Virus record (IMG/VR): IMGVR_UViG_3300027983_000009
Location: 1 to 64,000 of that record
Source of the DNA: a virus
Strand: one strand, 5' to 3'
DNA: 64,000 nucleotides
Below the pieces are notes generated by a model that did not search any database, had not been told where the DNA came from, and saw nothing but the letters and a program-made list of their open reading frames with translations. Shown here in pieces: positions 9,983 to 62,627 of the stretch (position 1 is the first letter of the stretch; every line of letters begins with the position of its first letter). Position numbers and translations under genes: made by a program.

Positions 9983-10068
9983 GTTTGCAAATGCAGCTGC
10001 CGGTCGTGTAAACTCGGTGGAGAGTGTGCATTGGTATTCAGCGAGGGTAACACAGGAGCGAAGCAGAC

Positions 10069-12822
10069 GTGATAGAGCCGAACTTATCAGATCAGCAGAA
10101 CAGTGTAATCAGGGATATTAGGCACCTTGTGTCAGAGAGCCCGCAGCTGGCTTGCTCTATTGCCCTCGAGGTACAGCTGCGGAGAGCTCTGTGCGTTATC
10201 GTTAACGCACGAGCGCACGAGCTGCGTACATGGAAAACAACCAGCGACGAGGCATCGTTGCTGAGTGGTATGACAGAGATAGCCGTGCACAAATCCCGCA
10301 CAATGGGGACACCGACAGCTTCGGAGGTTGTGGGGGGTCTACTCAACAGAGTGGTACCAGCTGTTGACATTTTCTGCCGGCAGTTCCAGAAAGAGCTGGA
10401 TGCTGGTAAGTCTTCTTTCGAACTCTACCCGTATTTTTGTCAACACATCTCGCGGCAAGGTGTGCAGGATATGAGCGATGGACCCACTAGCAGAGATGGC
10501 CAACCCGATACAGTCGATTGTGCGGAAGCTGGAGATAGCGGAGGAGCCGCCGAGGACTGATGTCAGCAAGTTTACACTGCTGGATATGCAGGCCCATTTC
10601 GTGCTGTGCACATCAGGTGTGCTTCACGCAACGATACCAGGCCTGAACCGCGACCTGGTGCGAGACTTCCTGACAGCTGTAGAGGACGCCACAGATGCTG
10701 TGGCCGTGTTTGATAGTGGGCCAGCGTTATTCGACGGGCTGGGTCAGCAGCTCGTGTTAAACAAGTTTGTAGACTTGGATCGCCGCATTTACGCTGTCCG
10801 TAAAGATCTTTGGGAGGGCTTGCGAAATTTCGTAGGGAGTGCTGCGTTTATAGCTAGTGACATGACCACATATCAGGTGCTGTTGCACACTGTCGCTGTG
10901 GTGGATGTAGTGGCTATGCAGAAATCCCCTTTATTACCGGCGCTGCCAATTGTTACAGTGCAAGTTTTCGCGGTGAATCATGACACCGGATTCTACCATT
11001 TATTACCAAGGTTGGTGGGTAGCGGGCTGCTGCCAAAGTATGCTGTAGCTCCACCATACACAACAGAAGAACTTTCTAAACTGGAATTAGCATGCAGTTG
11101 ATATTCACCCTGACAGGTACTGACGAGAATTTAATAGCTGTTACGGCAAAAGGTGAAGCTATTACTGGGTTTCAGCGGCTGGTTATCGAGCCAGAGCCGG
11201 TTGTTGGCAAGAGGTACATCCCGATCGGCCGACTCAAAGCCCTCGGCAATAGTGGCCGCGAGGTGCTGACAGACATAGTATTCGATACGAGGAAGGGCGA
11301 GTTTCTTATCAGGCCAAAGAAGCTGGACCCTAAAGGCTTTGAGTTCGACCGCAGCGAAGTGGCGGCTTATGGGGTAGTATCGGCCGCAGCAGAAGAGCCG
11401 GCAGCAGAGCCAGAAGAAACTTTCGGAATTCCCGCACCGCCTATCAAGCGAGGGGGCAGCGAACAGTGACTGTCTTCTTTACACGGACATTTACCGAGAC
11501 CCGGTGGTATCAGCGGGTGGTAGACGAAGAGGGGTCGCGGTATGTGGAGTTCTCTCCACCATCCGTTAGCCAGCTTAGTCTGGATCAGCAGGTAGCAGAT
11601 TGGGTGGGTGAGACTGGTAGCATCATCGTCAACCCTGGAACCCTCGGTATGCATACAGTGTGGCACGGTACGGATAAAGATCCGTATGCTGTCAAATGTA
11701 TCATGCTGGCGATCGTGATTCTGTATCAGGAGTAGCGAAATGTCGAACAGTATCACAGAGCCAGGTAACCCGCAGCCGCAAGCTGCAGTCCCACCACGTG
11801 GCAGTGCAGGTAAGCGGACAGCCTCAACGTTTCCACCACCGCAGCAACTCGGGGCGGCGTTACAACAATCCGAGCCGGCGGCAGAAACAGCACCACCGTC
11901 AACACAGGGCGATGCCGTAGCCACGCCGGAGTTGGCTACTGTTTTGCAGGCACTGCTGTTGCAGTTAAGGTTGCAACAGCCCGCATCAGCCGAGGCTGTG
12001 CCAGTGGCACCACCAGCTGCACTGTTACAGGTCTCGCAACCACAGCCGGCAATAGCAGTACCTGGCGCTATGGGTTCTTTGATGGTGACGCTGCTGAATC
12101 AGCGTAGGGAGGCTGGCAGTGCGTTTTTCTTGCTGGTGATCCCCGAGACTGCAGCCCCGGAGTTGCAGACATTCGAGAATGTGGAGGGGCTCATTGATGC
12201 GATAAGAGCGAAGACTGGGGAGTCGGTCTACATGTTTTGTTTTCTCGGGCAGAGAATGCACATAACACGCGGGGCCAATCAGTCGCTGATAACGCCGTAC
12301 GGCGCGCTATCGCTTGCATTACCTCAAGTTGCTGGGGATATAGTTGAAGACGGCTGGTTAGGTAGCGAGCTTCCGGTTACGGAGGTGTCGCAGCTCGGTA
12401 GCCTGATCAGCGAGGAGCCTGGTGATGAGGAAGAAGACCAGTTGGGTGAAGAAGACTACGATGAGGACAGTGGCGGCACGCAACTGTTTTAACTCAGCGA
12501 GTAAACGCGTCAGTTAGTATGTATGTTGTATAGCATATCTATTAGACATAGTGTGTAACTTCGTCTAATAGCTACGCGTAGCAAAGGGGGACCAATGTCG
12601 CACGAACAGCGGCATAGACGAGAGTTTTACGAGGGCCGCCCAGTGAAGCGGAAACGTAAAGTCGTGGGTGGAATCCTGCTCACGTTCGTAAATGAGATAA
12701 AGGGATCCAGAGGTGAGCAGCTTGTGGTAACACAGGCTCAGCTAGACGCCGGTCGTACATTGCAAGATGTACCAGATCGGACAATGGATTGTTTAAGGAG
12801 GTTAGCCACAAAGTGTGGTTGA
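10069..12822 (+). other. Cluster of six hypothetical CDS (10069-10560, 10478-11101, 11092-11469, 11466-11735, 11740-12492, 12595-12822)
   Basis: Co-directional, mostly overlapping or abutting ORFs; no recognisable motifs. Confidence 0.55.
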
Positions 12823-28428: not shown

Positions 28429-29694
28429 ATGTCGGATGCACTTGCAGCGATCAGGGCGTGGAGAAAAAGTGCACTTGTTTCGCCAATGGTTGCACCGGGT
28501 AACACAGCACCAAGACAGCAGCCCGGGGCACGACATGTGATGGGGAGTGGAATACCGCAAACAGGGCTTTCGACGCAGCGAGGAAAGGCTCCAGCGTTTC
28601 CAGGGTTGCCAGGAAGTCCAGCAGGAAATCCCATAGAGACACACGGAGCGTTGGGGCCGGCTGGGACTGTGGATGGCAACCACGCAGCAGGTGTAGCGAA
28701 AGGATTTAAGATTGGCAGGGCAAGGCTTGCGGAGAAGGGTATGCAGGCAACTTCTTCTGGGAAAATCAATGTTTTTAGTAAAGATTCATCCCAGCTCCGC
28801 GGGTTCGTAGCAGGGCAGAGGAAGACTGCAGGCATGTATGCGGCTCATATTGTCTCGGCAAACCTACCACCTGAGCAGCGCAAGCAACTACTTGCGATAG
28901 CGAAGAACGTGGCCAGGTTTCGCCAAGCTATCGCGACAGATATGTCATCGCAGGGTTATCAGTCGTACGCTGGTGGAAGCACAAACTTCCGTGACGACAT
29001 ACTTGAGCAGTTTCTGGAAAAGAACAAGGATGCACAGGTGGAGGCTGGCGATTCTTATGAGATATCTGCGAGAGGTCCTCGTCGGTGGATGGGTTTGCGA
29101 CAAGGTGCACGTATTCCGATTGGGGAGGGTTACGCGACGTTAATGGATCATTTTGATGAGGGTGGGCAGGGGTATGAGCGTGACGAGTCTCATGCTGTAA
29201 CAGATTTTTACGGCGAGGTGGATCCCGCTATTCACAGCTTTTTAGGTCAGATGACAGGCGGCCGCTACAAAACACCGAAACCTCCGAAGGCACCATCTGC
29301 TCCGAAGTTAGAGGGTGTACCGGCGATAAAGGCGGCATTCAGACAACCGACTGATGTGTCGCCATACGCAGGTATTCATCGACGGATTCGCCACACTCTG
29401 GCGGGTGGTGCGATGGGCGGGTTAGTTGGTGTTGGGGTTGGTGGTTTAACTGGGGCTGGCGGGGCTGCCGGTGCCACAATTGGCGGGCTGCACGGCATGT
29501 TTAGCGATCCGGGTGTAGATGAGGAGGGCAAGAAGCGGAGCCGGATGATGGCTGCACTTCGTGGTTCTCTGGGTGGTGGGGCGTTGGGTGCAGCTGGCGG
29601 ATTGGCAGCTGGTGTTGGCGGGCTGGCTGGTGGTGCAGCTGGCGGCACAGTCGGGGCCAGCATCGACGACTGGCCCGTGGCGCCGCAGCTGTGA
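28429..29694 (+). CDS. Gly/Ala-rich protein with K-x-A motifs (possible virion-internal protein)
   Basis: KSA/KTA/KAA motifs, glycine-zipper-like C-terminal helices. Confidence 0.55.
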   Translation: MSDALAAIRAWRKSALVSPMVAPGNTAPRQQPGARHVMGSGIPQTGLSTQRGKAPAFPGLPGSPAGNPIETHGALGPAGTVDGNHAAGVAKGFKIGRARLAEKGMQATSSGKINVFSKDSSQLRGFVAGQRKTAGMYAAHIVSANLPPEQRKQLLAIAKNVARFRQAIATDMSSQGYQSYAGGSTNFRDDILEQFLEKNKDAQVEAGDSYEISARGPRRWMGLRQGARIPIGEGYATLMDHFDEGGQGYERDESHAVTDFYGEVDPAIHSFLGQMTGGRYKTPKPPKAPSAPKLEGVPAIKAAFRQPTDVSPYAGIHRRIRHTLAGGAMGGLVGVGVGGLTGAGGAAGATIGGLHGMFSDPGVDEEGKKRSRMMAALRGSLGGGALGAAGGLAAGVGGLAGGAAGGTVGASIDDWPVAPQL

Positions 29695-30070
29695 GCTCTC
29701 ACATATACGCTCTCACATATACTCTCTCACAGCACATTTTGACAACAATCCCAGCCTTGCGGGTTCGTAGCAGGATAACAGGGGGCCAAAGTATACAGCT
29801 CCTCACATATACTCTCTCACGTATACGCTCTCACAGCAATCCCAGCCAGGCGGGTTCATAGCACGGCAACTGCACAAGTCCTCACATATACTCTCTCACA
29901 ACAATCCCAGCTCTGCGGGTTCGAAGCAAGGCATGAACAGGGTTGTCACAGTGCACAATTCCTCACATATACGCTCTCACAGCAATCCCAGCCAGGCGGG
30001 TTCATAGCACGGCAGCACAGTCCAGGATCCACAATAACAATCCCAGCCTTGCGGGTTCGAAGCAGGGCAT
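29695..30070 (+). CRISPR. Degenerate CRISPR-like mini-array: 5 Cas12m-type pseudoknot repeats with interspersed CTCACATATAC(G/T)CTCTCAC motifs
   Basis: CAATCCCAGCyNNGCGGGTTCrwAGCA at 29746, 29837, 29902, 29983, 30038 with unique intervening segments. Confidence 0.5.
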
Positions 30071-31584: not shown

Positions 31585-34500
31585 ATGAAGCAGGTGAAGT
31601 TAGAAAAACTCACACAAGAACAGATCGCGCAGCTCCCGCTGCACACAGAGAAATGGTTGGAGATAGGGCTATCATGTGAGCCGTGCGATTTCGAGAAGGC
31701 CAAAGCGGCTGCAATCGAGTGCTACGTAGCAGCTGGGCTGGAGCCGCCCAAATTGTTTCTTCTTTTCGATTCGCCCATAGCGGCGGCTATGGGGGCGGTA
31801 GCACTGCAGTCTATTGCCTCGGATCAAGGTATGGAGCGGCTCCAGCACCAGCTCAGGAATAAAATCTTGGCGAAGGCCTGGGCGCAGGTCAGTGATCAGG
31901 TCGGTGCGAAGGTACGGGATCATGTCAAGGGACAGGTCGGCGATAGGATCGTGTATCAGATCTGGCAGACGGTCCGGGATTCTCTCACTGCTCAGGTCGG
32001 TGATCGTGTCGATGCTCAGGTCAGCGAGCAGGTCACCGAGCAGGTCGGTAAGCAGATCAGGAATCAGCTCGCTGAGCAGGTCTTGGCTCAGCTCGACAAC
32101 CAGGTCAGTGCTCAGGTCAGTTCTATGATCAACGATCGGGTCACGTGGTCGGTACGGGATATGGTCAACGGGGGGGTCAGTGATATGATCCGCGAGCAGG
32201 TCACGTGGCCGGTACGGGATATGGTCAACGAGGAGGTCTCGGATCAGGTCCGGAATCAGCTCACTGATCAGGTCTTGGAGCCGGTCGGTGATGCGATCCA
32301 CTCGCAGGTCTCGGAGCTGCTACGGGAGCAGATCTGGGAGCAGGTCCGAGATCAGATCTGGGGTCGGATCGATACTCAGATCCGTGATCATATCCGGGAA
32401 CAGGTCGGCGATGATATCAGTGAGCAGATATGGGAGGCGGGCAATGCTACGCTCGCGGTTCGGGATCAGCTCTTGAGGCCGGTCCAGGATCAGGCCTGGG
32501 AGGTAGCCCAAGAGGCGATTGCGCATACTCCAGGCGAGAAAGTCAGCGATCAGGTACAGGTTAAGGTCTTGGGGCAGATCTGGGGTAAGCTCTGCGAGGA
32601 GCTCAGTAGTGAAGTCTTGGATCAGGTCATGAATCATGTCGTCGAGCCGGTCGAGCCGGTTATGTCGCAGATCCGGGACCGAATCCGGGAACAGGTCGGC
32701 GAGCAGGCCCAGGATCAGGCCAGTGCGGGGGTCCGCATTCAGGTCGATGCGCATGTCAGGTATGGGGTCACCGAGCCGGTCGGTGAGCAGGTTGGTACTC
32801 GTGTCTGGGGGCAGGTCTGGGCTGAGGCCAATAACCAGGTCAGTAATCAGGTCGCTGCACAAATCAGTGAGCTGATCAGTGGGCAGGTCGGTGAGCATGT
32901 CTGGGGTAAGGTCCGTGGTCCGGTCTCGGCTCAGGTACGCGAGAGCGTCGGTGAGCAGATCCAGGAGCAGGCTTGGAAGCAGGCCAGCGAGCAGACCCTT
33001 GAGGAGGTCGGTGATCAGGTCTCGGAGCCGCTCAGCGAGCCTGTCCGTGGGATGATCCGGGATCACGTCTTGGGTCAGGTTATTGATCAGATCCATGAGC
33101 AGATCAGCGAGACGGTCCGTAGGGTGATCCTGGGGCAGGTCAGCGGGCAGGTTCGGGAGCAAGTCTGGGAGCAGATCCGGATGCGCGTCAGCGGTCAGGT
33201 CGGCGAGCAGGTCCGGGATACTGTCTCGGGTCAGGTCCATGAGCTGGTCAGCGAGACGACCATGGAGCAGGTCGGTGATCAGGTCTGGGGTCGGGTCATG
33301 AACACTGTAGGTGCACAGGCCCGGGCAGGGGGCCAGAATCAGGATTCGACTTGGGATCGGGTACAGGTTAAGGTCTTGGAGACTGTAGCGGATACGGTAC
33401 GAGAGCAGGTCTTGAATCAGCTCAACGATCAGGTCTTGGAGCAGGTAGGTATGCCGGTATTGGCGCAGATCCAAAATCAGGCTCGGGAACAGGTCGGTGG
33501 TCAGGTCAGTGATCAGGTCAGTGATAGGGTCAGTGATCAGGTCAGTGATGAGGTTCGTGCGGAGGTCTCAGCCCGGGTCCGGAATTCGATCTGGGATCAG
33601 GTCATGGAGCAGGTCCGGCATCAGGTCGATGCGGATGTCAGGGATCTGGTCGGCGGGCAGATCCAAGAGCAGACCTCGGGGCAGGTCAGAAATCAGGTCT
33701 GGGCTCAGACCTGGGATAAGGCCTGGGAGAGTATCAACGCGACGATCCGGGAGAAAATCAGCGAGCAGGTCCGAGAGCAGCTCAAGGATCCGGTCAGGAC
33801 TCAGGTCTGGGATCAGCTCCGGAGTCCGATCTGGGGGCAGGTCCGAGATCAGGTCGGCGAGCCGGCCATGGAGCAGGTCGTGGATCAGGTCTCGAATAAG
33901 GTCTCTGATCAGGTCAACACGGCGATCATGGATCAGGTCCGGGGGCAGGCCCGGAAGCAGACCCAGGAGCAGACCCCGGAGCAGTTACGAGAGCAGCTCC
34001 TGAATAAGGTCAGCGATCAAGTTTTTGGATCGCACGACGTAGGGTGGTTATCTTATTACGCATTTTTCCGCGAGCATTGCGGGTTAACGGAGGCTACAGA
34101 TAAACTTTCCGGACTGCTTGAGCTGGCCAAGAACTGTGGCTGGTGGGCACCGTATAAGGGTGTGTGCATTTTTCAGCACCGGCACAGTGAGCTGCACCGA
34201 GATGAAGCGGGGCGACTGCACAACGAGACAGGGATGGCGTGTCGGTACCGTGATGGTTTTGGGGTCTGGTCGCTTCACGGCATACTAGTGGATGAGCAGA
34301 TTGTTATGCGACCGGAGACACAAACGGTTGCGCAGATCAACGAGGAGACGAATCAAGACATCCGATCTATCCGAATCACCCGGTTTGGGTGGGCCAGGTA
34401 TATTGAAGAGTCTGGTGCGGTGTGTGTGCACAGCATGATCAATCAGATCAGCAACACACCAGAAGCGTTGTACCGATTGGCAGACAATTCACAGAGGCTT

Positions 34501-34623
34501 GTTGCTGGCTGTGTGACTGGTAAGATGGTTACGATGGGTGTCCCATCTACCATCATGACGTGCGAGCAGGCTCAGCTGTGGCTTGCTGGCGACAAAAAGT
34601 TCAATCTGATAGCAGCTACATGA
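31585..34623 (+). CDS. DUF6745-like protein with large internal (QVxx/DQV) repeat expansion
   Basis: N-term KLTQEQ...WLEIGL...DSP; C-term GSHDVGWLSYY...CGWW...GRLHNETG..RYRDGFGVW; ~730 aa of periodic repeats. Confidence 0.75.
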   Translation: MKQVKLEKLTQEQIAQLPLHTEKWLEIGLSCEPCDFEKAKAAAIECYVAAGLEPPKLFLLFDSPIAAAMGAVALQSIASDQGMERLQHQLRNKILAKAWAQVSDQVGAKVRDHVKGQVGDRIVYQIWQTVRDSLTAQVGDRVDAQVSEQVTEQVGKQIRNQLAEQVLAQLDNQVSAQVSSMINDRVTWSVRDMVNGGVSDMIREQVTWPVRDMVNEEVSDQVRNQLTDQVLEPVGDAIHSQVSELLREQIWEQVRDQIWGRIDTQIRDHIREQVGDDISEQIWEAGNATLAVRDQLLRPVQDQAWEVAQEAIAHTPGEKVSDQVQVKVLGQIWGKLCEELSSEVLDQVMNHVVEPVEPVMSQIRDRIREQVGEQAQDQASAGVRIQVDAHVRYGVTEPVGEQVGTRVWGQVWAEANNQVSNQVAAQISELISGQVGEHVWGKVRGPVSAQVRESVGEQIQEQAWKQASEQTLEEVGDQVSEPLSEPVRGMIRDHVLGQVIDQIHEQISETVRRVILGQVSGQVREQVWEQIRMRVSGQVGEQVRDTVSGQVHELVSETTMEQVGDQVWGRVMNTVGAQARAGGQNQDSTWDRVQVKVLETVADTVREQVLNQLNDQVLEQVGMPVLAQIQNQAREQVGGQVSDQVSDRVSDQVSDEVRAEVSARVRNSIWDQVMEQVRHQVDADVRDLVGGQIQEQTSGQVRNQVWAQTWDKAWESINATIREKISEQVREQLKDPVRTQVWDQLRSPIWGQVRDQVGEPAMEQVVDQVSNKVSDQVNTAIMDQVRGQARKQTQEQTPEQLREQLLNKVSDQVFGSHDVGWLSYYAFFREHCGLTEATDKLSGLLELAKNCGWWAPYKGVCIFQHRHSELHRDEAGRLHNETGMACRYRDGFGVWSLHGILVDEQIVMRPETQTVAQINEETNQDIRSIRITRFGWARYIEESGAVCVHSMINQISNTPEALYRLADNSQRLVAGCVTGKMVTMGVPSTIMTCEQAQLWLAGDKKFNLIAAT

Positions 34624-35083: not shown

Positions 35084-35174
35084 TTGCTCATAAGCAGCAA
35101 GGTCCACTCTGTGCAGCCGGCTCATTGCGAGCCGGCTGCAGCAGGTGGCGGACAAAAAGAGAAGGGAGCGATAA

Positions 35175-35435
35175 GTGGAGGAACCCAGCAGCTTCAAACC
35201 AGTCGGTAGCAACCACATCGACGGCTACGGCAACCAGTGCGGCAACGGCTCCGGCTATGGCAACGGATACGGCTATGGCAACGTCTACGGCTATGGCAAC
35301 GGATACGGCTACGCCAGCGCCTACGCCAACGTCTACGCCAGCGGTTGCGGCAACGGCAGCTGTTCCGGTTACGGCGACGGCAACGGTTTCGGCAACGGCA
35401 GCAGCACAGTGTCGACATCTACCAGACGACGGTAA
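35175..35435 (+). CDS. Gly/Tyr/Asn-rich mini-protein, cassette 1
   Basis: SSFKPVG...TVSTSTRRR. Confidence 0.55.
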   Translation: MEEPSSFKPVGSNHIDGYGNQCGNGSGYGNGYGYGNVYGYGNGYGYASAYANVYASGCGNGSCSGYGDGNGFGNGSSTVSTSTRRR

Positions 35436-35454
35436 CAGGAAGCAGGAAGGTAAA

Positions 35455-35751
35455 ATGCGCAGCTTAAAACTAGTAGGCTACAGCTTAGGCTACGATCCAA
35501 GTTACGGCAACGGCAATGGCAATGGCTACGGCTATGGCAACGGCCACGGCAACAGCAACGGCTGCGACTACGGTAGCGGCTACGGTACCGGCAGCTGTTC
35601 CGGTTACGGCAACGGTTACAGCTATGGCAACCAATACGGCTCCGGCTCAGGCCCCGGCTCTGGCTTCGGGAACGGTTACAACGGCTACAGCAACGGCGAC
35701 GGCGGCGGTTACGGCGACACCACCATCTCAACGACTACCAGAAGACGGTAG
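35455..35751 (+). CDS. Gly-rich mini-protein, cassette 2
   Basis: MRSLKLVG...TISTTTRRR; GGAAGG RBS. Confidence 0.6.
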   Translation: MRSLKLVGYSLGYDPSYGNGNGNGYGYGNGHGNSNGCDYGSGYGTGSCSGYGNGYSYGNQYGSGSGPGSGFGNGYNGYSNGDGGGYGDTTISTTTRRR

Positions 35752-35771
35752 CAGAAAGCAGGAAGGTAAAA

Positions 35772-36068
35772 ATGAGTAGTGTAAAACCAGTAGGTGGCGG
35801 TATTCGTTACGGTAGCGGACAAGGTTACGGCGCCGGTTACAGCTTCGTCAACGGTAACGGCCACGGCTTCGGCTTCGGCAACAGCTGCAACCGCGGTACC
35901 GGCAATGGTTACATTAGCGGCCGCAGCTTCAGCAACGGCTACGGCAGCGGCTACAGTAACGGCGACGGCGACGGTTATGGCGACGGCAACGAGCGAGGCG
36001 GCCACAGTTACGGCGACGGCTACGGCTATGGCAACGGCACAGTCTCAACAGTTACCAGAAGACGGTAG
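35772..36068 (+). CDS. Gly-rich mini-protein, cassette 3
   Basis: MSSVKPVG...TVSTVTRRR. Confidence 0.6.
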   Translation: MSSVKPVGGGIRYGSGQGYGAGYSFVNGNGHGFGFGNSCNRGTGNGYISGRSFSNGYGSGYSNGDGDGYGDGNERGGHSYGDGYGYGNGTVSTVTRRR

Positions 36069-36088
36069 CAGGAAGCAGAGAGGTAAAA

Positions 36089-36415
36089 ATGAGCAGTGTA
36101 AAACTAGTAGGTGGCGGCCTCCGTTACGGCGGAGGCCGCAGTTCCGGGCAGAACAGTGGCTGTGGTAGCGGCTGTGGCTACGGTGACAGCTACGGCTGTG
36201 CCAGCGGCAGCGGTAGTGGCAGTGGTTACGGCAGCTACGGCAGCGACGGCGGCGGAGGCTACGGCGAAGGCTACTGCAACGGCAGCGGCGCTGGCAACGG
36301 CGCCGGTTACCGTGGAGGAAACGGCGGCGGCTACGGTAACGGTACCGACAACAGCTTCGGCAACGGCTTCGGTCATGGCATCAGCACAATCTCAACAGCC
36401 ACCAGAAGACGTTAA
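36089..36415 (+). CDS. Gly-rich mini-protein, cassette 4
   Basis: MSSVKLVG...TISTATRRR. Confidence 0.6.
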   Translation: MSSVKLVGGGLRYGGGRSSGQNSGCGSGCGYGDSYGCASGSGSGSGYGSYGSDGGGGYGEGYCNGSGAGNGAGYRGGNGGGYGNGTDNSFGNGFGHGISTISTATRRR

Positions 36416-36435
36416 TAGGAAGCAGGAAGGTAAAA

Positions 36436-36723
36436 ATGAGCAGCTTAAAACTAGTAGGTAGCGGCCACGGCCTGGGTTACGGCTTCGGCAACGGCTTCGG
36501 ATTCGGATACGGTTACAGCACCGGATACGGTAACGGCTTCGGCTTCGGCTTTGGCTTCGGCAACAACGGTCGATACGGCAGCACCAACGGCTCCGGCTCC
36601 GGTTCTGGCACTGGCTCCGGCGACTGCGACAGCTACAGCAGCAACGGCAACGGCTACAGCAGGAACGGCTTCGGCAACGGCAACGGTAACGGCACAGTGT
36701 CGACCTCTACCAGAAGACGATAA
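36436..36723 (+). CDS. Gly-rich mini-protein, cassette 5
   Basis: MSSLKLVG...TVSTSTRRR. Confidence 0.6.
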   Translation: MSSLKLVGSGHGLGYGFGNGFGFGYGYSTGYGNGFGFGFGFGNNGRYGSTNGSGSGSGTGSGDCDSYSSNGNGYSRNGFGNGNGNGTVSTSTRRR

Positions 36724-36749
36724 TGTGTAGCAGGGTGTAAAGGGTGTAA

Positions 36750-36767
36750 TCGGTTATTGATAACCGA
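36750..36767. promoter_or_regulatory. Palindromic operator-like site (GTTATnnATAAC family)
   Basis: TCGGTTATTGATAACCGA. Confidence 0.55.
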
Positions 36768-36838
36768 GCTCATAGAGAGCTGACTCATTGTGAGGCAGCG
36801 ACAGTAAGTGGTAAGCAATAATCAGAAAAAGAAACAGA

Positions 36839-37162
36839 ATGATCGATCAGACAGTAGTGATCAACGGTGTTAAGTATGTCCGAGAAGACTCAGTTCCAGT
36901 ACCACGACCGACTGGAAGCAGGGCTGTAGTTGTGGTGGATCGCGGGTGGATCTTCGCTGGGGATGCTCGGCGGGAGGACGGCAGGATCTTCCTGAGCAGA
37001 GCGATCCTTGTCTTCAAATGGGAAGAAGTTGGGTTCGACGGGATGCTCTCAAATCCGCTGTCGACTAAAGTATTCCTGCGACCGCTGCAGAATGATGTCG
37101 AGATCCCGGCAGGGTCGGAGATTTGCTCCGTTCCGGTATCGGAAAACTGGGGGCTGAAGTGA
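36839..37162 (+). CDS. DUF6948-like small beta protein
   Basis: INGVKYVRED...VVVVDRGWIFAG...L..A..V..W. Confidence 0.5.
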   Translation: MIDQTVVINGVKYVREDSVPVPRPTGSRAVVVVDRGWIFAGDARREDGRIFLSRAILVFKWEEVGFDGMLSNPLSTKVFLRPLQNDVEIPAGSEICSVPVSENWGLK

Positions 37163-37368
37163 GCCCAGCCCCGAGCGGCAACACCTTGAAACTTGTAGGC
37201 TACAGCTTAGGCCACTGTTACGGCGCCGGCTACGGTTACGGCAGCGGCAACAGCTACGGCTATGGCTACGGCTATGGCAGCGGCTATGGCAGCGGATTCG
37301 GCAGCGTCTATGCCAGCGGTGACGGTTTCGGCAACGACAGGCAATCAAACAGGAGGACTCAGTGGTAG
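37159..37368 (+). CDS. Gly-rich mini-protein, cassette 6
   Basis: LKLVGYSLG...GYGYG; GTGA overlap. Confidence 0.5.
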   Translation: MSPAPSGNTLKLVGYSLGHCYGAGYGYGSGNSYGYGYGYGSGYGSGFGSVYASGDGFGNDRQSNRRTQW

Positions 37369-38702
37369 TAGAGCAGCACCAAGAATCAGGCAAAACCGAA
37401 CCAGCGGATCTGGTAACAATCACGATCAGCCGAGTTGTGGCACGTTGGCTGGATCTACATCTCCAGCAACAATTCAAAATGCACGGGTTCCGACCGCACG
37501 ATCCGGTACCTCCAGAGGTAGCGGTGGTGGGGCAGGCTGTACAGGAGGCGATGGAGCCCACACCAGCTTTCGCAGGTTTCTCACACGGTTCAGATGTTAA
37601 TGTTTCGTGGGAAGAAGCCATCGTACTTGCGGGGATGTGCCGTCGAGCTCATAAGCAAGCGGGGATAGAGCTGGAAGCCATGCGATCAACCGACCCGGAT
37701 CGGCGACTGCTGCCAGAAAGTTTACGCGACGCGCCGCTAGAAGAGCTGCGTGATCAGGTTAACCCGTGGTGCAGCAGGTGTATGTTGCTGGAGCATCTGG
37801 TCAAGGTATTCACAGACGCAGTACCAGATAGTTACACGGATCGATTCAAGAGTGCGGGTGATCACCTAACGATCACACCACAACCCACTCTGCTGGATCC
37901 TATCATGCGAAGAATGATAGCTGCTGAGGATAGCAGGATATTAGCTTCTATTGCGGCTCCTGCCGCTGGCTCGGAGGATGTGGCCCGCAGGGAGCGGCAG
38001 AAACTACATCGCGAGCCGGATAACCTAATCTACTTCCAGTAGTAGTTCTGCAAACAGTGGAGACTAGATAAAGGAGCTAGAAGTGAAGAAAAAAGGTAAG
38101 GCTGCAGTTATCCGGCAGCGGTGGTCGTGTGTCCCGCGATGGGTGACTCGACAGATATCTGGACTACGGCAGATCGGCCGAATCGACCCATACTACGAAG
38201 TCCATCGCTGCGCGGTGTCTATTCGCATGCTAGCGCAGGAGCTTGATGACAAACACGAGTTTAGTCGACTGATGGATCATTGGGGTAGTTGCGGCGATGT
38301 GTTTTACTGTGAGCCGTACTGGACGAAGGTCGAGGTGAAACCAATCGCAGACAGGCTTTCCAGGTTGCTGTGCTGCTCGTGGAGATTCGCTAAGCCTAGA
38401 TGGAATGACTCGACAATTCGTGTCGAGTTCTATAGGTCACCAGAGGATCAGCTGCCGCTCAGCGGGTTGCGGCGGCAGCAGGTTTTTGCGGATATCGTCT
38501 CCCCAGCTATCGAGGCGAAAATTAAGGCATATATGGATACACCGTACAGGAAGCATAAGCGACTCGAAGATCTAAGAGTGATCACCACTACAAAGGTCTG
38601 GGTGCGGGTAAGGAAGATGCTTGGAGTTCCGATGTTTTGACCGGCAACCAGGTAATTGCGTCGTAGTTGGTTATGAATAACGAACCTTTGACCCGATAGT
38701 AT

Positions 38703-42370: not shown

Positions 42371-43891
42371 AGATCTGCGATAACTGTAGGCTGGAGAAAA
42401 ACATACTTATCCTACTAGACAGCGAGTTTGGCGGCGGAGGTGTGGAGCTGTGTGTGCACTGCCACGACAAGCTGGCGAAGCAGGTCGAGAAGATAAATAG
42501 CCGATTGGCAGCAATTCGGGACAGGGCTCGGCAGCGGGCCTTCAAAGAGTTAATGAGTGAGAACCCTCTACCTATCCGGGTTCAGCGAGCCCGGTGGGCT
42601 ATCACAGCGTTACTGTTGACTCTGTTTAGCTCCTCCACAAAGGGCGAACCGTGAGCACAGGGAAGCAGATGTGTGATCGCGAGCAAACGCCACTTTACTC
42701 GATAGGTACGTGGGATACGCACAGACAGGCCTTCACGCCGCATCGGGGGCTGTCTGTGCCGTCTTTCAACATTACTATCCTCCAGTTGAGGGTAGCTATG
42801 CGGGAGCTGCAAGAGACGGGCTATAGGTGCCACAGGTACCGAGGCCTAAACGGCGGAGAGGAGGACAATGACACGAGTGTGCTCATTGAAAGAACAGACG
42901 GGCAACCCTGGCGGGATATCCGTCGGGGTTGGAACAGATAACGAGCACCTAACACGCGAAGGGTTGAGAATTATGATGCTTGAAGAGGGTAAATACTACA
43001 AGAGCAGAGATGGGTATATAGTAGGCCCGGTAAGGCTAAGACTGCCGGTCGAGCGATATACTACTTTCCCATTCACGAGCCAGCTCGGAATAACGTACAC
43101 GAATAACGGGGTGGTTTATCGCACGCACGAGACAGGCGACGATTTGGTAAGCACGTGGGACCCTGTTGTGGCTCTAGCAGCACAGGCAGCACCGGTAGCA
43201 CCGGTAGCACCCGTTTCAGACAGTTGTGCGATCACGGGCATACCGTGGGTAGACTGGTTTAATCTGCAGAGCGATACCGATAGGCGGGTGATTGCGATAG
43301 AAGCACTTGCGGAGCTGCTCAGCCAGGCCACAATACTTGTCCGCACAGTTGGGGATACTGATGAAGTGGAATCTCTGTGTTGGGACAGCGGCGGAGAGAG
43401 TTTGAGTATACCCCTCTAGAGTGGTGAGTATGTTTGGTTATTCTGCAGAAATGAAGCCGCTGCAGAGGCATGCCTACCACTGTACGCTGAACTTGAGGCA
43501 GGTCAACTTCACAGGTAAAAAATTGTGTAACAGCACCACGGAATTACGAGATAACGAGAAACAGAGGGGACTAGACATGCAGATTTTTGGATCAAAACTC
43601 TGGCGGTTCTTTGGCGGAGAGAGGATTGAGGATGGGTTCAGACAGCTGTCCGACAGCATTATCAGTAACCGCAAGTTGATTTCAGAACTGCGCACAGAGA
43701 TCCTGTTGTTGCAGCGGAGAGTGTGGGCATTAGAATCGCACACTATTGAGGAGTCCGTGGCAGAGTGCGAGAAGAAGCTTGCGTCGTTTGAGGCGAGTGT
43801 AATAGCGTGGGCACCGATAGCACCAGATGAGCCGGACGCGCCGGATGTGGCAGTTGAGCCGGACGCGCCGGATGTGGCAGTTGAGCCGTGA
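42367..43891 (+). other. Four hypothetical CDS (42367-42654 CxxC, 42651-42941, 42973-43419, 43577-43891)
   Basis: Overlapping start/stop codons, RBSs. Confidence 0.5.
43442..43530 (-). promoter_or_regulatory. Antisense sigma70-type promoter + pseudoknot repeat cassette (copy 1)
   Basis: Minus strand: AT tract, TTGACC-16-TACAGT, 9 nt, GCC TC TGCAGC GGC TTCATT TCTGCA GA. Confidence 0.65.
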
Positions 43892-45299: not shown

Positions 45300-46436
45300 A
45301 TGATTGATGAGGCGGCACCAGATACACCCTATGTCAGAGCAATCCAGAAAAGGTTGGAGTTGCTCCAGCATATGCTAGGCGCCACCAGCCAGAAGAGACC
45401 AGCAACGTGGGGTGAGAGAAATTACTTCTGTGCCGAGATAGGCAGCGAAGACCACACTGTGCTGGTCAGTATGGTTGAAGAGGATCTCGTGCAGGCTGGC
45501 GGCACTATCAACGAGGGTACCGACCAGTATTTTTTCGCCACCAGGGCGGGGGCGCAAGCCATAGGGATGAGCAAAGCTGCTATCGGCAGAATGATCGATC
45601 GGCAGAGGGCGAGGACTAAGGCCCGGCAGGACGCTGCCGCTGTTGCAGCCGCTGTCGCTGCAGCTGCTGAGGGTAGTGTAGAGCCCACTGAGGGCGACGC
45701 TGTGTAACTCAGATACTTATTTTTCGCGGGAGCAGAGATGCCAATTTACAGGGTTATAGTACGCACGATGTTCGAGATTGATGCAGAGTCAGAACACGCA
45801 GCTAGAGTGCAGGCGTTTGAGGCTGCCGATAACTGTCTGGAGGAGACCCACGACACATTCCAACGATGTCGAAAGCGTGACCAGTTGTACGGACGCATCC
45901 ACAGCGCCAATGACGGCAATCGTACGCTGTGCGGATTACCGATGGACGAGCGGTGGTGGATCCTGACCACAGACGGCAAACACGCTCCAGAGTGTGACCA
46001 GTGTGCCGTATACGGACTAACAGAGAGCAGCAAATAGGAGACGATGATGTTCAAAGTAATGATCAACCCGAAGCCGGAAGAGCAAGGCACCGGCATCACC
46101 AGTGTGCGAAGGTGGGAAGACCCGGAGGTACTGGACAGCCTGCGTAAACTGTTCGACATGACCAGCAACGAAGTTCTGCTACAGCTGGAGATCAGCAAGG
46201 CAGGCATCGTAGGGAGGTTTGGTCGCACCGCGGTTACGCCCAAACAGAAAGACAGCTGGATCTACACCAGCGAAAAGATGCCCCAACCGGGCGAGCGTGT
46301 GCTGGGTATGACTGAAGATGGTATGTGGGCTGTGGTAATATGGACGACCAAGTACGTACCTATGCTGTACGTGCCGTCTGTTGACACTACCACGCAGTGT
46401 AAACCAGTCGTGAAATGGAAACGCGTAACACTATAG
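45300..46436 (+). other. Three hypothetical CDS (45300-45707, 45738-46037 Zn-binding, 46044-46436 with DUF551-like C-terminus)
   Basis: RBS-preceded ORFs; WIYTSEKMP motif. Confidence 0.55.
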
Positions 46437-46494
46437 TGTCCGCGTTGTGACTCTGGTTATTAGTAACAGACACTACAACTGAAAGAGAGTATAC

Positions 46495-46815
46495 ATGACC
46501 ACAGAATTGCCGAAGTACGTTTGTCACAAAGAGGTGCGAGCGCTAAAGATCGCAAGAGTGGCGAAGCACGCTCACTCAGACCCTAACGTAGATGACGCGA
46601 CGTTTGAGGCGTCATCTGTATTCCAGGGGGCGCACCTGATGCCGGAGCGAAAGGACTTCCTGCCGGTCCCGGTCGACCCAGCGTGGTATCGGAAACACAA
46701 ACCGTCAGGTGAGGGCTACTACGTTGTGTACGCTGACGGTTACACGTCGTGGTCACCGGTTGAGGCGTTTGAGCAGGGTTACGTATTGGCAGATGAGCCG
46801 AAGACAGGAGAATGA
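46495..46815 (+). CDS. Conserved phage protein (YYVVYADGYTSWSP..AFE.GY family)
   Basis: Y.CHK.V.A.KI N-terminus and GY.SWSP motif. Confidence 0.65.
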   Translation: MTTELPKYVCHKEVRALKIARVAKHAHSDPNVDDATFEASSVFQGAHLMPERKDFLPVPVDPAWYRKHKPSGEGYYVVYADGYTSWSPVEAFEQGYVLADEPKTGE

Positions 46816-47346
46816 CCGTGAGCAGCGACTCTACGTGCCCATACTGTCAGCAGGATGGTATGGTCACAGAGTCAATGTCTGAAGACGAGGAGGTCGAGGT
46901 AGAGTGTGGAGGTTGCAGTGAGACGTTCATAGTCACAGCCTCGGTTCGTGTGCTGTATAATGTATCCTGTGCACCGGGTAAGCACGACCTGCGGCCAAAC
47001 AAAAAACACGACGGCTGGTACAACTGCAGCAAATGTGACTCATTCTTGAATGAGGTGATCCACCAAGACGAGTTCACCAAACCAGCCAGCTAGGTAGCGT
47101 ATTTTAACGCAGCGGAGTAGACCCGTGTACGAAGAACGGAGAAGACCTATGCATATCGATGAGGTGCAGGCAGACGTGGATGACGTCACCAAAGCTGCAA
47201 ATGAGCTTGTAGAGCACCTGACCACCGCGGAGTGTTGTGAGACTATAGAGGACCTTCAGGTGAACCTCGAGAATGCTGTGCGTACAGCTGGCGAGATTCA
47301 GGCAGCCGCAAAGAGGCTGCATAAATTGGCAATGCGACTACGGTAG
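46812..47346 (+). other. Two CDS: Zn-ribbon protein (46812-47093) and coiled-coil protein (47149-47346)
   Basis: CPYC/CGGC/CSKC; RBS. Confidence 0.5.
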
Positions 47347-47371
47347 TCGCGAGCGTGATAGTGTTTAGTAT

Positions 47372-47419
47372 GCCTACTTGGGGGCTTCGTATCCAAGCTG
47401 CTCCGGTTGAAAGGGATGT
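47372..47419 (+). ncRNA. Pseudoknot repeat + candidate self-targeting guide (47400-47419)
   Basis: GCC TA CTTGGG GGC TTCGTA TCCAAG CT, then GCTCCGGTTGAAAGGGATGT, matching 47541-47560 (17/20) behind TTT. Confidence 0.55.
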
Positions 47420-47426
47420 GGCTACT

Positions 47427-47726
47427 ATGTCTAAATCATCTGAAGCTCTACAGCGTGCGTTCATAGCAGACCCCGGAGCTATCCGGTCGCTGATGTTGAA
47501 CAGAGCGCCGTGCAATGCGGCTCTGGTTGACCATGAATTTGTTCCGGTTGAAAGAGATATGTGTATGCCGGGGGCGCATTTCACAATCAGCGCTATTGGG
47601 CTGGTCAACGCAGTACTTGCAGCGAACGGCCTGCCGCTGGTTGCAGGTATGTGGGAGGATGGCGAAAAGGTAGGGTGTGACAATTTTGTAGGGTTCTGTG
47701 AGTGCACACCAACTGTAGAGATCTAA
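47427..47726 (+). CDS. Hypothetical protein (contains the candidate protospacer)
   Basis: MSKSSEALQRAF.ADP...CN..LVDH...IGLVNAV. Confidence 0.6.
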   Translation: MSKSSEALQRAFIADPGAIRSLMLNRAPCNAALVDHEFVPVERDMCMPGAHFTISAIGLVNAVLAANGLPLVAGMWEDGEKVGCDNFVGFCECTPTVEI

Positions 47727-48248
47727 TCTAAGGAGGTGAGCCGTGGATGCAGATAACCTAATAGCGAGAGCCAGAAGGCAGCAAGTTGTCGGCAATGGCA
47801 AGGCGCAGATTGCGGCCCTCGTGTACGAACTGGAGATGCGGGAGGCTCAGGTGGGCGGTATGACAATCCGCTTGCATGAAGCTGAGTCACAGTTAGCGAA
47901 CTACATCAAACTTATTAAGGAAGGCGCAGCTAGGCGTCTTAAGCAAGGGGGTGTATAATGTTCAATAGACACAATAATATGGATGGGATGGCGGCACTAG
48001 CCAGTTCCGGTTGGGGTGGTGTTACTTCGTGTGGATATCCCAGTGATAGTGCGGGTTACTGCGAGTAGGGCTACCCAAGACGGGTTGCCAGCCCAGCTCG
48101 TTGTTGTGTTTCCGCAAGGTAGGCTGTGTGTCGAGGATATGAGTGGCGACTGGCAAGCTGTGCGGACCCCGCCAAAGATGTTGAAGACAGTCGCGATGAG
48201 AGAGCAAGCAGCGGTAAGCCCCGTAGCAAACACCAGACAGGAGTAGAT

Positions 48249-48608
48249 GTGGGAGAATTTGAAAAGTCAAAACTGCCAGTAACCTTCGAAGAGTGGGCCA
48301 CACACCCCAGACCCAAACCGCTAGACGCAGACGCCCTGGAGCTGTGGCTAGCTGCGCAGGGGCGTTGTAAACCGTGCCCATTTTGCGGCACAAGCCGTAC
48401 GCTAGTGTCTAGCGAGCTGAACGCTCAGACTAATATTTACATCACACACATTGCCTGCAGTAACTTCAAGTGCTTCGTTGTAGTAGCAGGTAATTCGAGA
48501 TACAGCCGATTGCAGGCACAGCAGGAGGCGTTTAACAAGTGGCAACGCAGACCGGCAGGAGTAACAGAAACAGGAGACAATAACCCACCCCTCAAGCAGC
48601 TACCGTAG
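48249..48608 (+). CDS. Lar-family (restriction alleviation-like) Zn-ribbon protein
   Basis: KPCPFCG...CSNFKC...AFNKWQRR. Confidence 0.55.
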   Translation: MGEFEKSKLPVTFEEWATHPRPKPLDADALELWLAAQGRCKPCPFCGTSRTLVSSELNAQTNIYITHIACSNFKCFVVVAGNSRYSRLQAQQEAFNKWQRRPAGVTETGDNNPPLKQLP

Positions 48609-48639
48609 CTGCTTTCATTATTAATAACCAACTTTACAT

Positions 48640-48667
48640 GCCGTTGCAGAGGCTTCGTGGCTGCGAG
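48640..48667 (+). repeat. Cas12m-repeat-like pseudoknot motif
   Basis: GCC GT TGCAGA GGC TTCGTG GCTGCG AG; operator-like ATTATTAATAAC at 48617-48628. Confidence 0.65.
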
Positions 48668-48682
48668 AGAGGGTAGTGAACA

Positions 48683-49678
48683 ATGACAAAAAACCAGCAA
48701 TCTCTACCTGTGGGCGAGCGTCGGGTTCGTTGGGTAGCAGCTGAACGAGATGACTCTTCGTTCGTAACGGAGTACAGGCTTATCGTTGGCAAGCTTATTA
48801 GACGCGGCAAGATGCGGTGTGTAGCGACAGTCTGGGTTAAACCGGAATGCAACTATGCAACGTGGCACACGTGGGACATTCAAGGGACAGGTGGCGAGAA
48901 TAGTGTTGAGTACGCCGACAGCTGCGAGGCAGCTACGCTGCAGGCTAAAGGTATGGCGTCATTAGCGGCAATTACTCAGGGTTTCGTGTAGGTAATCAGC
49001 AGGAGAGTAATATGACAGAGCCGTGCTATATGTTGAAGATAGCAGACAGGCTGACAGGGCATGCGCACTGTGGAGCGAGCGACGCAGAGGCTGCGGCAGA
49101 CATCATCAGACAGGTGCACGGTATTCTGGTGCAGGTGCGGCAGCAGTATTTACTCCCGACAGAGGCCGGATACCGTGGAGGGCTGAGTCAGGAAGTGCGA
49201 GCACAGATCATGACACTACTTTGAAGAGGAGCAGAGAGAAGTGAAGAAACAGAAAGCAGCACTAACTGAGGCGCAGCAACCACCAAAAACACTACGCGAC
49301 TTAAAGGTCGGTGACAGCGTGTTTGTTGTGCATCAGCGTGGGAGGTGGGATCCTGCAGAGTATAGGACAGCGGTTGCCACTGTGGTAAAGGTGGGTAGGT
49401 TGTACGCATACATTGAGCAGGGTGTGTACAGTGACCTGTCACCGTTCTGTCGCGACACTGGGTCTAGCGTCCACCCGGGTGATGGTAATGTGAGATCTAA
49501 TAACCGCGGGTTTGATGTGCACCTGTCACAGCAAGGCTACCATGAATCCGGGCAGAGAAGCGCGGAGATGGCCAGGCTGACCAGACGGATCATCGCGAGG
49601 ATGGGTGATCTGATACAGCTACCGCCAGAAGTTGTGACAGCGATACACAAGCTGTTGGACGACGCCAAGCTGGATTAG
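48683..49678 (+). other. Three hypothetical CDS (48683-48991, 49012-49224, 49241-49678 SH3-like 'LKVGDSV..VVKVGR')
   Basis: RBS-preceded ORFs. Confidence 0.55.
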
Positions 49679-49691
49679 CAACCCAGCCAAT

Positions 49692-49769
49692 GTGTAGTGC
49701 CGCTGCAGAGGCGTAATATCTGCAGAGCCCAGAATATGGTGACAACCCTGCCGACGTTCGGCGGGGTTG
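49692..49769 (+). ncRNA. Repeat + 16-nt segment + hairpin immediately upstream of cas12m
   Basis: GTGTAGT GCC GC TGCAGA GGC GTAATA TCTGCA GA; 12-bp hairpin 49743-49769. Confidence 0.55.
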
Positions 49770-49809
49770 GCAGCAAGCAGCAAACATCAAACAGAGAGCA
49801 GGAATCAGA

Positions 49810-60142: not shown

Positions 60143-61189
60143 ATGCAGCCACGACTGGACCGTATAGGTGATATCACCAGAGCAGCTGTCACGCAGCTGT
60201 TTATGCAACTGCTCAACCCGCAGCGGCGATACAGAGTGGCAGAGTTTGACTTTACTACGTACGACATTGCTAAGCCTGTAGTAGAGGCTGCGCAGTTCAT
60301 GCTATCTCAAACACTGACTCCGACAGAGATCGATACTGTGCGTAAGAAGTCAGTAGAGCTGTGGAAGAGATATGTGAGCATGACCGGAGTGGCTGAGTGG
60401 TGCGGAGAAGGAGCTGACGGCTCTACCCCGGAGAAGCTGATGATGCGGTGGGCTACAGACGCCCAGCAGCTGCTGGAAGCTGGCACACGCGAAGACTTAG
60501 CGGAAGCTAAGACGCACATGACACTGATACAGAACACGATTAAAGAGCTACAGCAGCAACGTGGTATTTCGGGCACACCAGTCAGCAGGCCACCAGCTAT
60601 ACAGCAGAGAAAGAGGAAGTAGTGTGAGCAGGCTTGTGCAACTACAGTCGGTGATTGGAGACTAAGCTATGTTAGCGTACGGAGCTAGAGTTATTGAGTT
60701 CATGGACGGCCCATTACAGGGCGAGTTTCACGAAGTAGAGAACGGCTTCCCGTGCCCGGATAGGATGTCCGTACCAGATGCGACAGCGAAGTGGGAATAC
60801 ATATACGACATAGATAGCAGTACAGGCAGAGCGACCTTCGTCAGCGAGGGTGTGCGCAGATAGCAGGAGACACAATGAGCGTCAAATACATCCGATACAC
60901 AGACGAGAAAACAGAGCCGGTAGCTCGCAAACCTATCAGCGTAGGTAAAGACCCGGCAGCACAGGGTTTCCTGAGGATGTTTGGTCAGCCGACCAAGCTA
61001 CCAGGTCAGGACGACGAGGGTTACGGCGGCAAGATCACCACAGACAAGATGGTCTACGTCAACCGTAGTGATACTAGCACCAATGGCAACGCTAGAGGCG
61101 GTCGCTGGTACCGCGTGTATGCAACTTGCTACGGCAATGCGACATCCTCTTGGGTGCTCATAGGAAAAACTCGGTACCACTTACGTTGA
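60143..61189 (+). other. Three hypothetical CDS (60143-60622, 60669-60863, 60875-61189)
   Basis: GGAG RBSs. Confidence 0.55.
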
Positions 61190-61218
61190 CCGCAGAGGCA
61201 GCAAACAGGACGTAGCGA

Positions 61219-61307
61219 TCTGCAGAAATGAAGCCTCTGCAGGGGCATGACTAGCACTGTACGCTGAACCTGTGGCGAGTCAACTGCACAGGTAAAAAAT
61301 TGTGTAA
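61219..61307 (-). promoter_or_regulatory. Antisense promoter + pseudoknot repeat cassette (copy 2)
   Basis: TTGACT-16-TACAGT, 9 nt, GCC CC TGCAGA GGC TTCATT TCTGCA GA. Confidence 0.65.
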
Positions 61308-61415
61308 CAGCACCACGGAATTTGAAGAGACAGCAAACAGAAAGCAGGAAAATCATGAAAGACCAGGACTACTACAAAGAGCTCTACCCAGTGATCCTAG
61401 ACCGTTGGTTTTTAC

Positions 61416-61463
61416 GCCTCTGCAGGGGCTTCGTGTCTGCAGCTTACGGCAATGCGACATCCT
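61416..61463 (+). ncRNA. Pseudoknot repeat + segment matching 61129-61148 behind TTG
   Basis: GCC TC TGCAGG GGC TTCGTG TCTGCA GC then TTACGGCAATGCGACATCCT (19/20). Confidence 0.45.
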
Positions 61464-61679
61464 CTTGGGTGCTCATTGGAAACATTCAGTACCACTTACG
61501 TTGACCGCAGAGGCAGCAACAATGGTTACGGGAAATAAGGTGACGGTTAAAGAAGAGCACAAGAAGACCAAACAGCCAGCAGCTGGATACAGTCGACCAC
61601 TTGGGGAGTCTTGTGCTGAGTGCGGGTTAATATTTGGACAGCACCGCCATAATTGCAGTAAACAGAAAGCAGGAAAATC

Positions 61680-62307: not shown

Positions 62308-62526
62308 ATGGCCAGATTCACAATCGCAGAGCTGAAGGCTGGTACGTGCAGCATGACAGAGCTGGCTCGCGTGATAGATTTGAAATTGAGTAGATGGCCG
62401 GGGAATTGCGACTTTGTGGCGACGAAGCTGGTAGAGTACGGCCAATTACCGGGCCGCGTAGTGCGAGGTCACTACCATGGCCGAATATCATCTGCAGAAA
62501 TGAAGCCTCTGCAGAGGCATGCCTAG
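62308..62526 (+). pseudogene. Probably truncated gene running into the antisense cassette
   Basis: Last 12 codons are cassette sequence (SAEMKPLQRHA*). Confidence 0.4.
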
Positions 62527-62579
62527 CACTGTACGCTGAACTTGAGGCGAGTCAACTGCACAGGTAAAAAATTGTGTAA
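62491..62579 (-). promoter_or_regulatory. Antisense promoter + pseudoknot repeat cassette (copy 3)
   Basis: TTGACT-16-TACAGT, 9 nt, GCC TC TGCAGA GGC TTCATT TCTGCA GA. Confidence 0.65.
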
Positions 62580-62627
62580 AATCCCCCTAAACGCCTCAAT
62601 AGAGGCTGCTCGAACGAAAGGATAACT

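Follow-up and report, generated by a model that had tools for sequence, protein, structure and literature searches.

The stretch of DNA analysed here (the window) comprises 64,000 nucleotides (nt), positions 1 to 64,000 of IMG/VR virus record IMGVR_UViG_3300027983_000009, a record of 82,680 bases in which nearly all genes lie on the plus strand. Its element of interest is a solitary repeat of the CRISPR type at 47364–47399, which lies in the leader of a small accessory gene and upstream of a gene for a Cas12m homologue. The repeat is of the kind used in genuine Cas12m arrays, the sequence that follows it begins in the register of a CRISPR guide and matches a site inside the adjacent gene at 17 of 20 positions, and the 3' edge of the repeat is a rearrangement junction in the phage lineage, seen in three public runs from three studies. 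The reading that we favour, and that we hold to be about evenly balanced between right and wrong, is that the solitary repeat acts on the transcript that carries it and that the self-match is incidental. The features on which the argument turns are the following.

47364–47399, plus strand: solitary Cas12m-type CRISPR repeat, the best match of covariance model R1, with the layout of the array repeat in the related contig L014
47399–47697, plus strand: segment missing in related strains, which spans the leader and almost all of the small gene; putative guide and putative target are lost together with it
47400–47419, plus strand: putative guide, the first 20 nt after the repeat, in the 5' leader of the small gene
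47427–47726, plus strand: small accessory gene, 99 residues, phrog_21281, no Pfam family
47538–47540, plus strand: TTT in the position of a protospacer-adjacent motif (PAM), the codon of a family-invariant Phe (F57)
47541–47560, plus strand: putative target, a 17/20 match to the putative guide, 114 nt past the start codon
49810–51801, plus strand: cas12m homologue, 663 residues, His-Asp-Asp type RuvC, homologous to characterised Cas12m

The 663-residue product of 49810–51801 matches the PDB entry 23vw_A, 'CRISPR-associated DNA-binding protein Cas12m', with an expectation value (E) of 3.1e-44 in two aligned stretches (query residues 208–443 and 479–626), UnCas12m4a with an E of 2.7e-15 and Cas12m2 (8hhl/8hio) with an E of 2.9e-14, which places it among the homologues of characterised Cas12m proteins. 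The Pfam Cas12f1-like TNB domain scored 22.2 bits, under its cut-off of 26.3. The alignment shows that the RuvC-I Asp of 23vw is His in the phage protein and the RuvC-II Glu is Asp, and the residues H342, D615 and D617 are invariant across eight members of the clade that share 39–50% identity. Judged from the protein sequence, this non-canonical His-Asp-Asp set is of the type that binds without cutting in Cas12m2, which is reported to bind DNA adjoining 5'-TTN and to silence transcription with no cutting (PMC10442227), so self-targeting by the phage protein would be tolerable. The sequence-only reading had supposed the presence of a Cas12m that blocks transcription without cleavage, and both the homology and the predicted active site are in keeping with this. 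Repeats lie directly downstream of cas12m in all five full-length viral relatives (arrays in L014–L017, two copies in L018). A look for regular or periodic CRISPR arrays in the window and across the whole 82,680-base genome found none, so that the adjacent array expected of a type V-M locus is lacking in this phage.

The element at 47364–47399 is a genuine Cas12m-type repeat. In its layout a 3-bp stem 1 is separated by 2 nt from a 6-bp stem 2, after which 2 further nt follow, and stem 2 encloses the second half of stem 1 together with a conserved 9-nt loop region. The closest comparison is provided by L014 (IMGVR_UViG_3300020219_000029, 9906–12620), a viral contig recovered by a scan with an alignment of the clade, which encodes a 47%-identical Cas12m. 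Its array starts 27 nt past cas12m and consists of nine 36-nt repeats with unique spacers of 35–37 nt, and two more repeat copies stand just upstream of cas12m. The L014 repeat shares with the window element the stem-loop layout and identical loop bases, its stem 2 differs by compensated changes, and its spacers begin directly after the same two bases that come 3' of stem 2. A second array of the family, in L100, has six repeats with a different but paired (compensated) stem 2. When viral contigs were searched for the pattern of the repeat core, 63 loci came back, and once the contig of L014 was set aside, L100 was the sole one of the remaining 62 with properly paired copies; no Cas12m was found within the 4.4 kb of L100. 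Between copies, stem 2 is maintained by compensatory changes and the loop is conserved.

The covariance model R1 was built from ten copies, all outside the window (L014, L100 and three solitary copies in the phage record G001), and was searched over the window with the filters off. Sixteen matches had an E<0.05, of which 12 were plus-strand matches, and 47364–47399 was the top match (32 bits, E 8.6e-6, full length 1–36, end at 47399), the E-values being rough as the calibration was shortened. The end of this match at 47399 means that a guide would start at 47400, in agreement with the register proposed by the sequence-only reading and with the spacers of L014. The CRISPR RNA (crRNA) scaffold of Cas12m2 is likewise reported to have a 6-bp stem and then two bases before the guide. 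G001 is a 71.9-kb record from the same sample as L014, estimated to be 78% complete, and its three solitary copies of the same repeat lie at L025:12902–12937, L025:14737–14772 and L026:7794–7829.

The called product of the small gene (P0001) has 99 residues and starts at ATG 47427, 27 nt past the end of the repeat; it matches phrog_21281 (function unknown) at E 6.6e-7, and no match to a Pfam family was obtained. An N-terminal extension past the Met aligned to 47427 is absent in seven of the nine homologues, and those of the other two show no conservation. Since most homologues start at this ATG, the stretch 47400–47419 belongs to the 5' leader and is not coding, and a Shine-Dalgarno-like AAGGGA (47411–47416) stands inside it. 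An intragenic protein repeat (PVERD twice at an offset of 141 nt, or 47 codons, both copies within the open reading frame (ORF) 47355–47726) was considered as an explanation of the match and was rejected on the grounds of these homologues. The neutral in-frame duplication, which the sequence-only reading had named as the alternative that would undo its proposal, loses weight for the same reason, as the first copy lies upstream of the conserved start codon.

The 17/20 identity between 47400–47419 and 47541–47560, with TTT at 47538–47540, was confirmed by reading both sites. The similarity extends one base upstream (47399 and 47540 are both T) and no further on either side, and the mismatches fall at guide positions 2, 15 and 19. 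A guide of plus-strand sequence pairs with the minus strand, so that positions 15 and 19 would form rG:dT wobbles, as had been stated for two of the three mismatches, and position 2 would be rC:dA, a true mismatch in the PAM-proximal seed with a single paired base before it. The target codes for V-P-V-E-R-D-M, which belongs to a variable part of the protein that follows the invariant Phe-Val. Promoter prediction over 47000–47560 gave no sigma-70-like promoter, and the site, 114 nt inside the coding region, is not the promoter target that regulatory crRNA-like (cr-like) RNAs have.

How rare such a match is depends on what is counted. At least 17/20 identity to a site elsewhere is reached by 5.4% of all plus-strand 20-mers, and by 0.32% when a TTN flank is demanded. 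Outside the tandem-repeat regions of the 82,680-base genome there are 76,788 plus-strand 20-mers, and 0.17% of them (133) have a TTN-flanked match of at least 17/20 on either strand. Over the 25 post-repeat segments, the family-wise chance of such a match is about 0.04 genome-wide and about 0.005 locally. A PAM-proximal run of 14 with one mismatch was reached by 2 of 276 control 20-mers, which corresponds to about 0.17 family-wise. The match is unusual and not decisive, with a family-wise chance of 0.005 to 0.17 according to the measure.

Under the reading that we favour, the repeat, which lies in the accessory cassette's 5' leader, would be transcribed within a rightward polycistronic message. 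The Cas12m of the phage, predicted to be nuclease-dead, would most likely bind the repeat on this RNA and may cut next to it, in the way that Cas12m proteins mature crRNA; PmCas12m is reported to cut at guide position 17–18 and close to the repeat's 5' end. The 17–20 nt kept as 'guide' would then be the ribosome-binding region of the small gene itself, so that the first effect would presumably fall on the transcript, through its translation or stability, and not on DNA. A start codon with a Shine-Dalgarno-like motif stands 11–27 nt past the repeat in 5 of the 14 plus-strand copies examined (a count that takes ATG 47427 for the repeat 47364–47399, for which the script gave the in-frame GTG 47418, 18 nt away), and in those five copies the post-repeat 'guide' appears to be a ribosome-binding region. 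The 17/20 resemblance would be a by-product, either of a short local duplication at the 3' edge of the repeat or of chance, and the rC:dA pair at guide position 2 would permit at most weak DNA binding at 47541–47560.

Several observations weigh against this reading. The leader (47347–47445) folds no better than shuffled sequences (z 0.87), and stem 2 is absent from the minimum-free-energy structure of the same segment; the poor free fold lends no support to a self-standing hairpin, although short protein-bound crRNA hairpins need not stand out. A same-strand, TTN-flanked match of at least 17/20 within 1 kb occurs for only 17 of the 76,788 20-mers (0.022%), and these 17 positions form 14 clusters, one of which is 47400–47401. 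The uniform-base estimate of the sequence-only reading (~2e-4 per guide) was of the right order for unique sequence. The match is rarer than a typical chance match, and it lies exactly in the guide register. Both in-register self-matches of the phage (47400 and 61444) are TTN-flanked, which would have a probability of roughly 0.002 if they were independent, TT being found at 4.6% of plus-strand positions; this hints that the PAM position matters and keeps a targeting model alive. When the small gene is compared with its DNA-level homologues, the target codons specific to the window (Pro, Arg) are the ones that agree with the guide. The putative guide would pair with the template strand, with its PAM on the promoter side, and this is the orientation that is effective for dCas12a roadblocks. 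Cas12m proteins are, moreover, reported to silence from coding-region targets as well as from promoters.

These points bear on the proposal of the sequence-only reading, a feedback loop, which we consider unlikely. In this model a Cas12m crRNA made from the leader (repeat 47364–47399 and guide from 47400 on) represses the small gene that it comes from. The ribonucleoprotein would bind 47541–47557/60 by the TTT on phage DNA and stop RNA polymerase inside the gene, so that the gene and the downstream unit, possibly including cas12m 2.3 kb on, would be damped, and the imperfect pairing would give partial repression. The genuine repeat, the exact register, the TTT and an effector of the non-cutting type, as far as its RuvC residues indicate, are the parts of the proposal that find support; the seed and the placing of the target inside the coding region are parts that find none. 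Of the other mismatches, position 15 would be a wobble and position 19 would be irrelevant if only 17 bp are formed, as reported for the heteroduplex of Cas12m2, and regulatory cr-like RNAs with partial complementarity are described as widespread. The rC:dA pair at position 2 weighs heavily, since in the published account PmCas12m lost its activity when a single mismatch fell within 12 nt of the PAM, and the cr-like regulators described so far have unbroken pairing from the PAM onward and are directed at promoters. The TTN motif is itself taken from other proteins, the reported T-rich 5' PAMs of characterised members all coming from Cas12m proteins outside this clade. Against the loop there also stand the control 20-mers that reach the same PAM-proximal run and the 20 of 25 post-repeat segments that have no notable self-target. 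In its wider form, which is more doubtful again, the model holds that the array has dissolved into single leader repeats, that each message donates its first ~17–20 nt as a guide, and that 47364–47419 acts as a roadblock 141 nt downstream. If this were true, it would amount to self-limiting feedback on the small gene and on cas12m, an RNA-guided transcription circuit fed by leaders of messenger RNA (mRNA).

Two relatives of the small protein, available as proteins only (P0002 and P0009), bear on the conservation of such a pair. Their N-terminal over-extensions read Leu-Arg-Ile or Leu-Arg-Val 14–15 codons before the Met, much as the window frame reads through the repeat loop, so that these relatives probably have the repeat at the same place. 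The peptides that follow are unrelated to that of the window and, in frame, to their own target region, which counts, indirectly, against a conserved guide–target pair. Protospacers that could have informed on the PAM were sought with the spacers of L014: among the loci collected these gave only 12–14-nt matches and no protospacer, the sequence that follows the final L014 repeat had a single match of 21 nt, and the L014 array had no match in the phage collection (distant mode, E limit 1; single spacers were not scanned against public collections).

Strain variation places the repeat at the edge of an exchangeable segment. Twelve public runs were listed, none of them of RNA, and four were examined (X4, X6, X7 and X10), all as DNA contigs. 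X4 is identical to the window over 46838–47655. In X6, X7 and X10, from three studies, a related strain with flanks of about 95–97% identity is found, in which the contig joins 47398 to 47698. Other contigs in these runs follow the upstream gene through the repeat, to 47397/47398, and then pass into unrelated sequence. The leader and the small gene thus come and go together as one cassette, bounded on the left by the 3' end of the repeat, and solitary repeats mark the edges of exchangeable gene cassettes. As guide and target disappear together, their joint loss neither supports nor refutes targeting.

Such junctions would also make sense if the repeats were no longer used by Cas12m at all, as relics of a scattered or decayed array or as recombination hairpins, with the similarity at 47541 a functionless product of chance or a scar; we regard this, too, as improbable. 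For the small gene, alignment-based scans brought back 26 loci, 13 from viral and 13 from metagenome contigs, of which 18 were used (L006 and L031 were duplicates, in L039 the gene was cut, and L009–L013 were weak), and the repeat preceded the gene in none of the 18 DNA loci. G001, with its solitary copies, yielded no detectable Cas12m, which shows little in a record only 78% complete. The leader fold, as noted, is no better than shuffled, and a 76-nt duplication described below abuts another repeat. Against disuse stand a stem 2 kept by compensatory changes, a conserved loop, the presence of 12 of the 16 significant copies on the transcribed strand, and an intact, clade-conserved cas12m in the same genome. 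A Cas12m was matched in none of five records with relatives of the small gene (four of the five being incomplete). Viral contigs scanned with one protein at a time, Cas12m or the small protein, yielded no relative, a megablast of 46000–50000 against phage records gave no match, and a scan of genome contigs with the Cas12m alignment brought up one distant relative only.

The remaining post-repeat segments were compared with the genome in the same manner. No notable TTN-flanked match was found for 20 of the 25 post-repeat 20-mers; the other five were 47400, 61416 (a duplication), 60012 and 60065 (each a repeat-on-repeat case), and 55412, where the run was 11, a length also attained by 21 of the 276 controls. 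The segment after the repeat 61408–61443 matches 61129–61148 at 19/20, adjoining TTG, with position 1 expected to be rU:dG. This match is the head of a 76-nt duplication (within 61408–61520 and 61129–61205) of the 3' end of gene 60875–61189, and the left edge of the duplication lies no more than 1 nt from the repeat end at 61443. Nearby sequence can therefore be placed directly after a repeat without any need for targeting. If Cas12m loads the RNA of the repeat 61408–61443, then 61129 would be a far better self-target than 47541. A further candidate, in which the 53675 segment (repeat 53667–53702) would target the cas12m leader at 49766–49785 with 17/20 identity, was rejected because of its GGG flank, three adjacent central mismatches and a leader motif common to several genes.

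Across about 37 kb of its genome the phage has about 16 to 25 single repeats, a good many of which stand in mRNA leaders. Single repeat units acting as RNA anti-CRISPRs are described for viruses in a review (PMC11656645), and the dispersed copies could by analogy serve as decoys for a host Cas12m, the post-repeat sequence then being irrelevant. This is very improbable: the phage encodes its own cognate Cas12m, and its copies stand in leaders and not in a dedicated small-RNA gene. The described elements resemble those of the phage in being single CRISPR repeats in a viral genome; they are reported to mimic a host system in a virus that has no effector of its own, whereas the cognate effector is present here.

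The comparison with type V-M systems (Cas12m2 of Mycolicibacterium mucogenicum, GoCas12m, PmCas12m) runs along the same lines. The effector is homologous and has the His-Asp-Asp RuvC, the 6-bp stem with two bases before the guide is that of Cas12m2, and the relative L014 has a normal array. In contrast, this phage has no array in 82.7 kb, its repeats are single, dispersed and often leader-borne, its repeat loop has 9 nt where that of Cas12m2 has 8, and the systems characterised so far are directed at foreign plasmids and phages rather than at the genome that carries them. A preprint of 2026 describes a phage Cas12m with an ordinary array and terms it the first in a phage, and according to the review cited above V-M is also encoded by some prophages. 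A narrow search of the Cas12m and phage literature brought up no description of dispersed solitary Cas12m repeats or of self-guides derived from leaders.

Regulatory cr-like RNAs, such as Cas9 tracr-L, type I CreA and mini-arrays directed at the promoters of cas genes (Shmakov et al., 10.1101/2023.03.03.530964), are the kind of which the self-match would be a variant. That survey concerns mostly type I and V-A systems and mentions V-M as non-cleaving interference. The likeness lies in a stand-alone repeat with a spacer-like segment partly complementary to a site in the same element, and in binding without cleavage as the would-be effect. The published cr-like RNAs pair contiguously from the PAM (11 bp, for example) with promoter targets and are conserved among related loci, whereas the phage pairing is broken at position 2 over a coding region, and of the strains compared X4 is identical while X6, X7 and X10 lack guide and target. 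With TldR (TnpB-derived and nuclease-dead; PMC10705468) the phage protein shares a miniature RuvC-type make-up and, by prediction, action without cleavage, and the natural guide of TldR serves to repress a gene of its own genome. TldR guides are, however, omega-RNA-like, encoded beside their gene and aimed at a conserved promoter target, whereas this phage has Cas12m and CRISPR-type repeats spread over about 37 kb.

Short hairpins of another origin deserve mention. The PeSL elements of T4-type phages are repeated stem-loops that bound mobile gene cassettes, are associated with promoters and are unrelated to CRISPR. The likeness to the present case is that short hairpins lie between small accessory genes and that the gene content of strains differs exactly there; the difference is that the phage element is homologous to a CRISPR repeat.

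The self-match is, on this account, a weak lead only, a striking agreement of register and PAM that is accompanied by a mismatch in the seed and by no comparative support. If it works, a virus would have wired a CRISPR effector into the regulation of its own gene with a guide drawn from an mRNA leader, and engineers would find in it a compact feedback design. Whether or not it works, this phage's dispersed hairpins are firmly tied to the repeats of a real Cas12m array in a relative, and this tie makes testable the role of a non-cutting Cas12m together with single repeats placed before phage genes.

Other repeated structures occur in the same window. A second class of hairpin, with CCC/GGG as stem 1, is found at 28790–30070 and at 55956; five copies, 55–91 nt apart, are interleaved with a 14-nt tandem motif, and R1 scores the class poorly (6.3–8.4 bits at best). 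A 104-nt cassette is present in three copies of 86–91% identity (43442–43545, 61219–61322 and 62491–62594), each of which ends, on the minus strand, in a copy of the repeat (R1 17–20 bits). Positions 31585–34623 hold an ORF of 1012 residues made of 12-nt periodic repeats, and after it, at 35125–37400, comes a series of short repeat ORFs that are rich in Gly/Tyr and have their ends in common.

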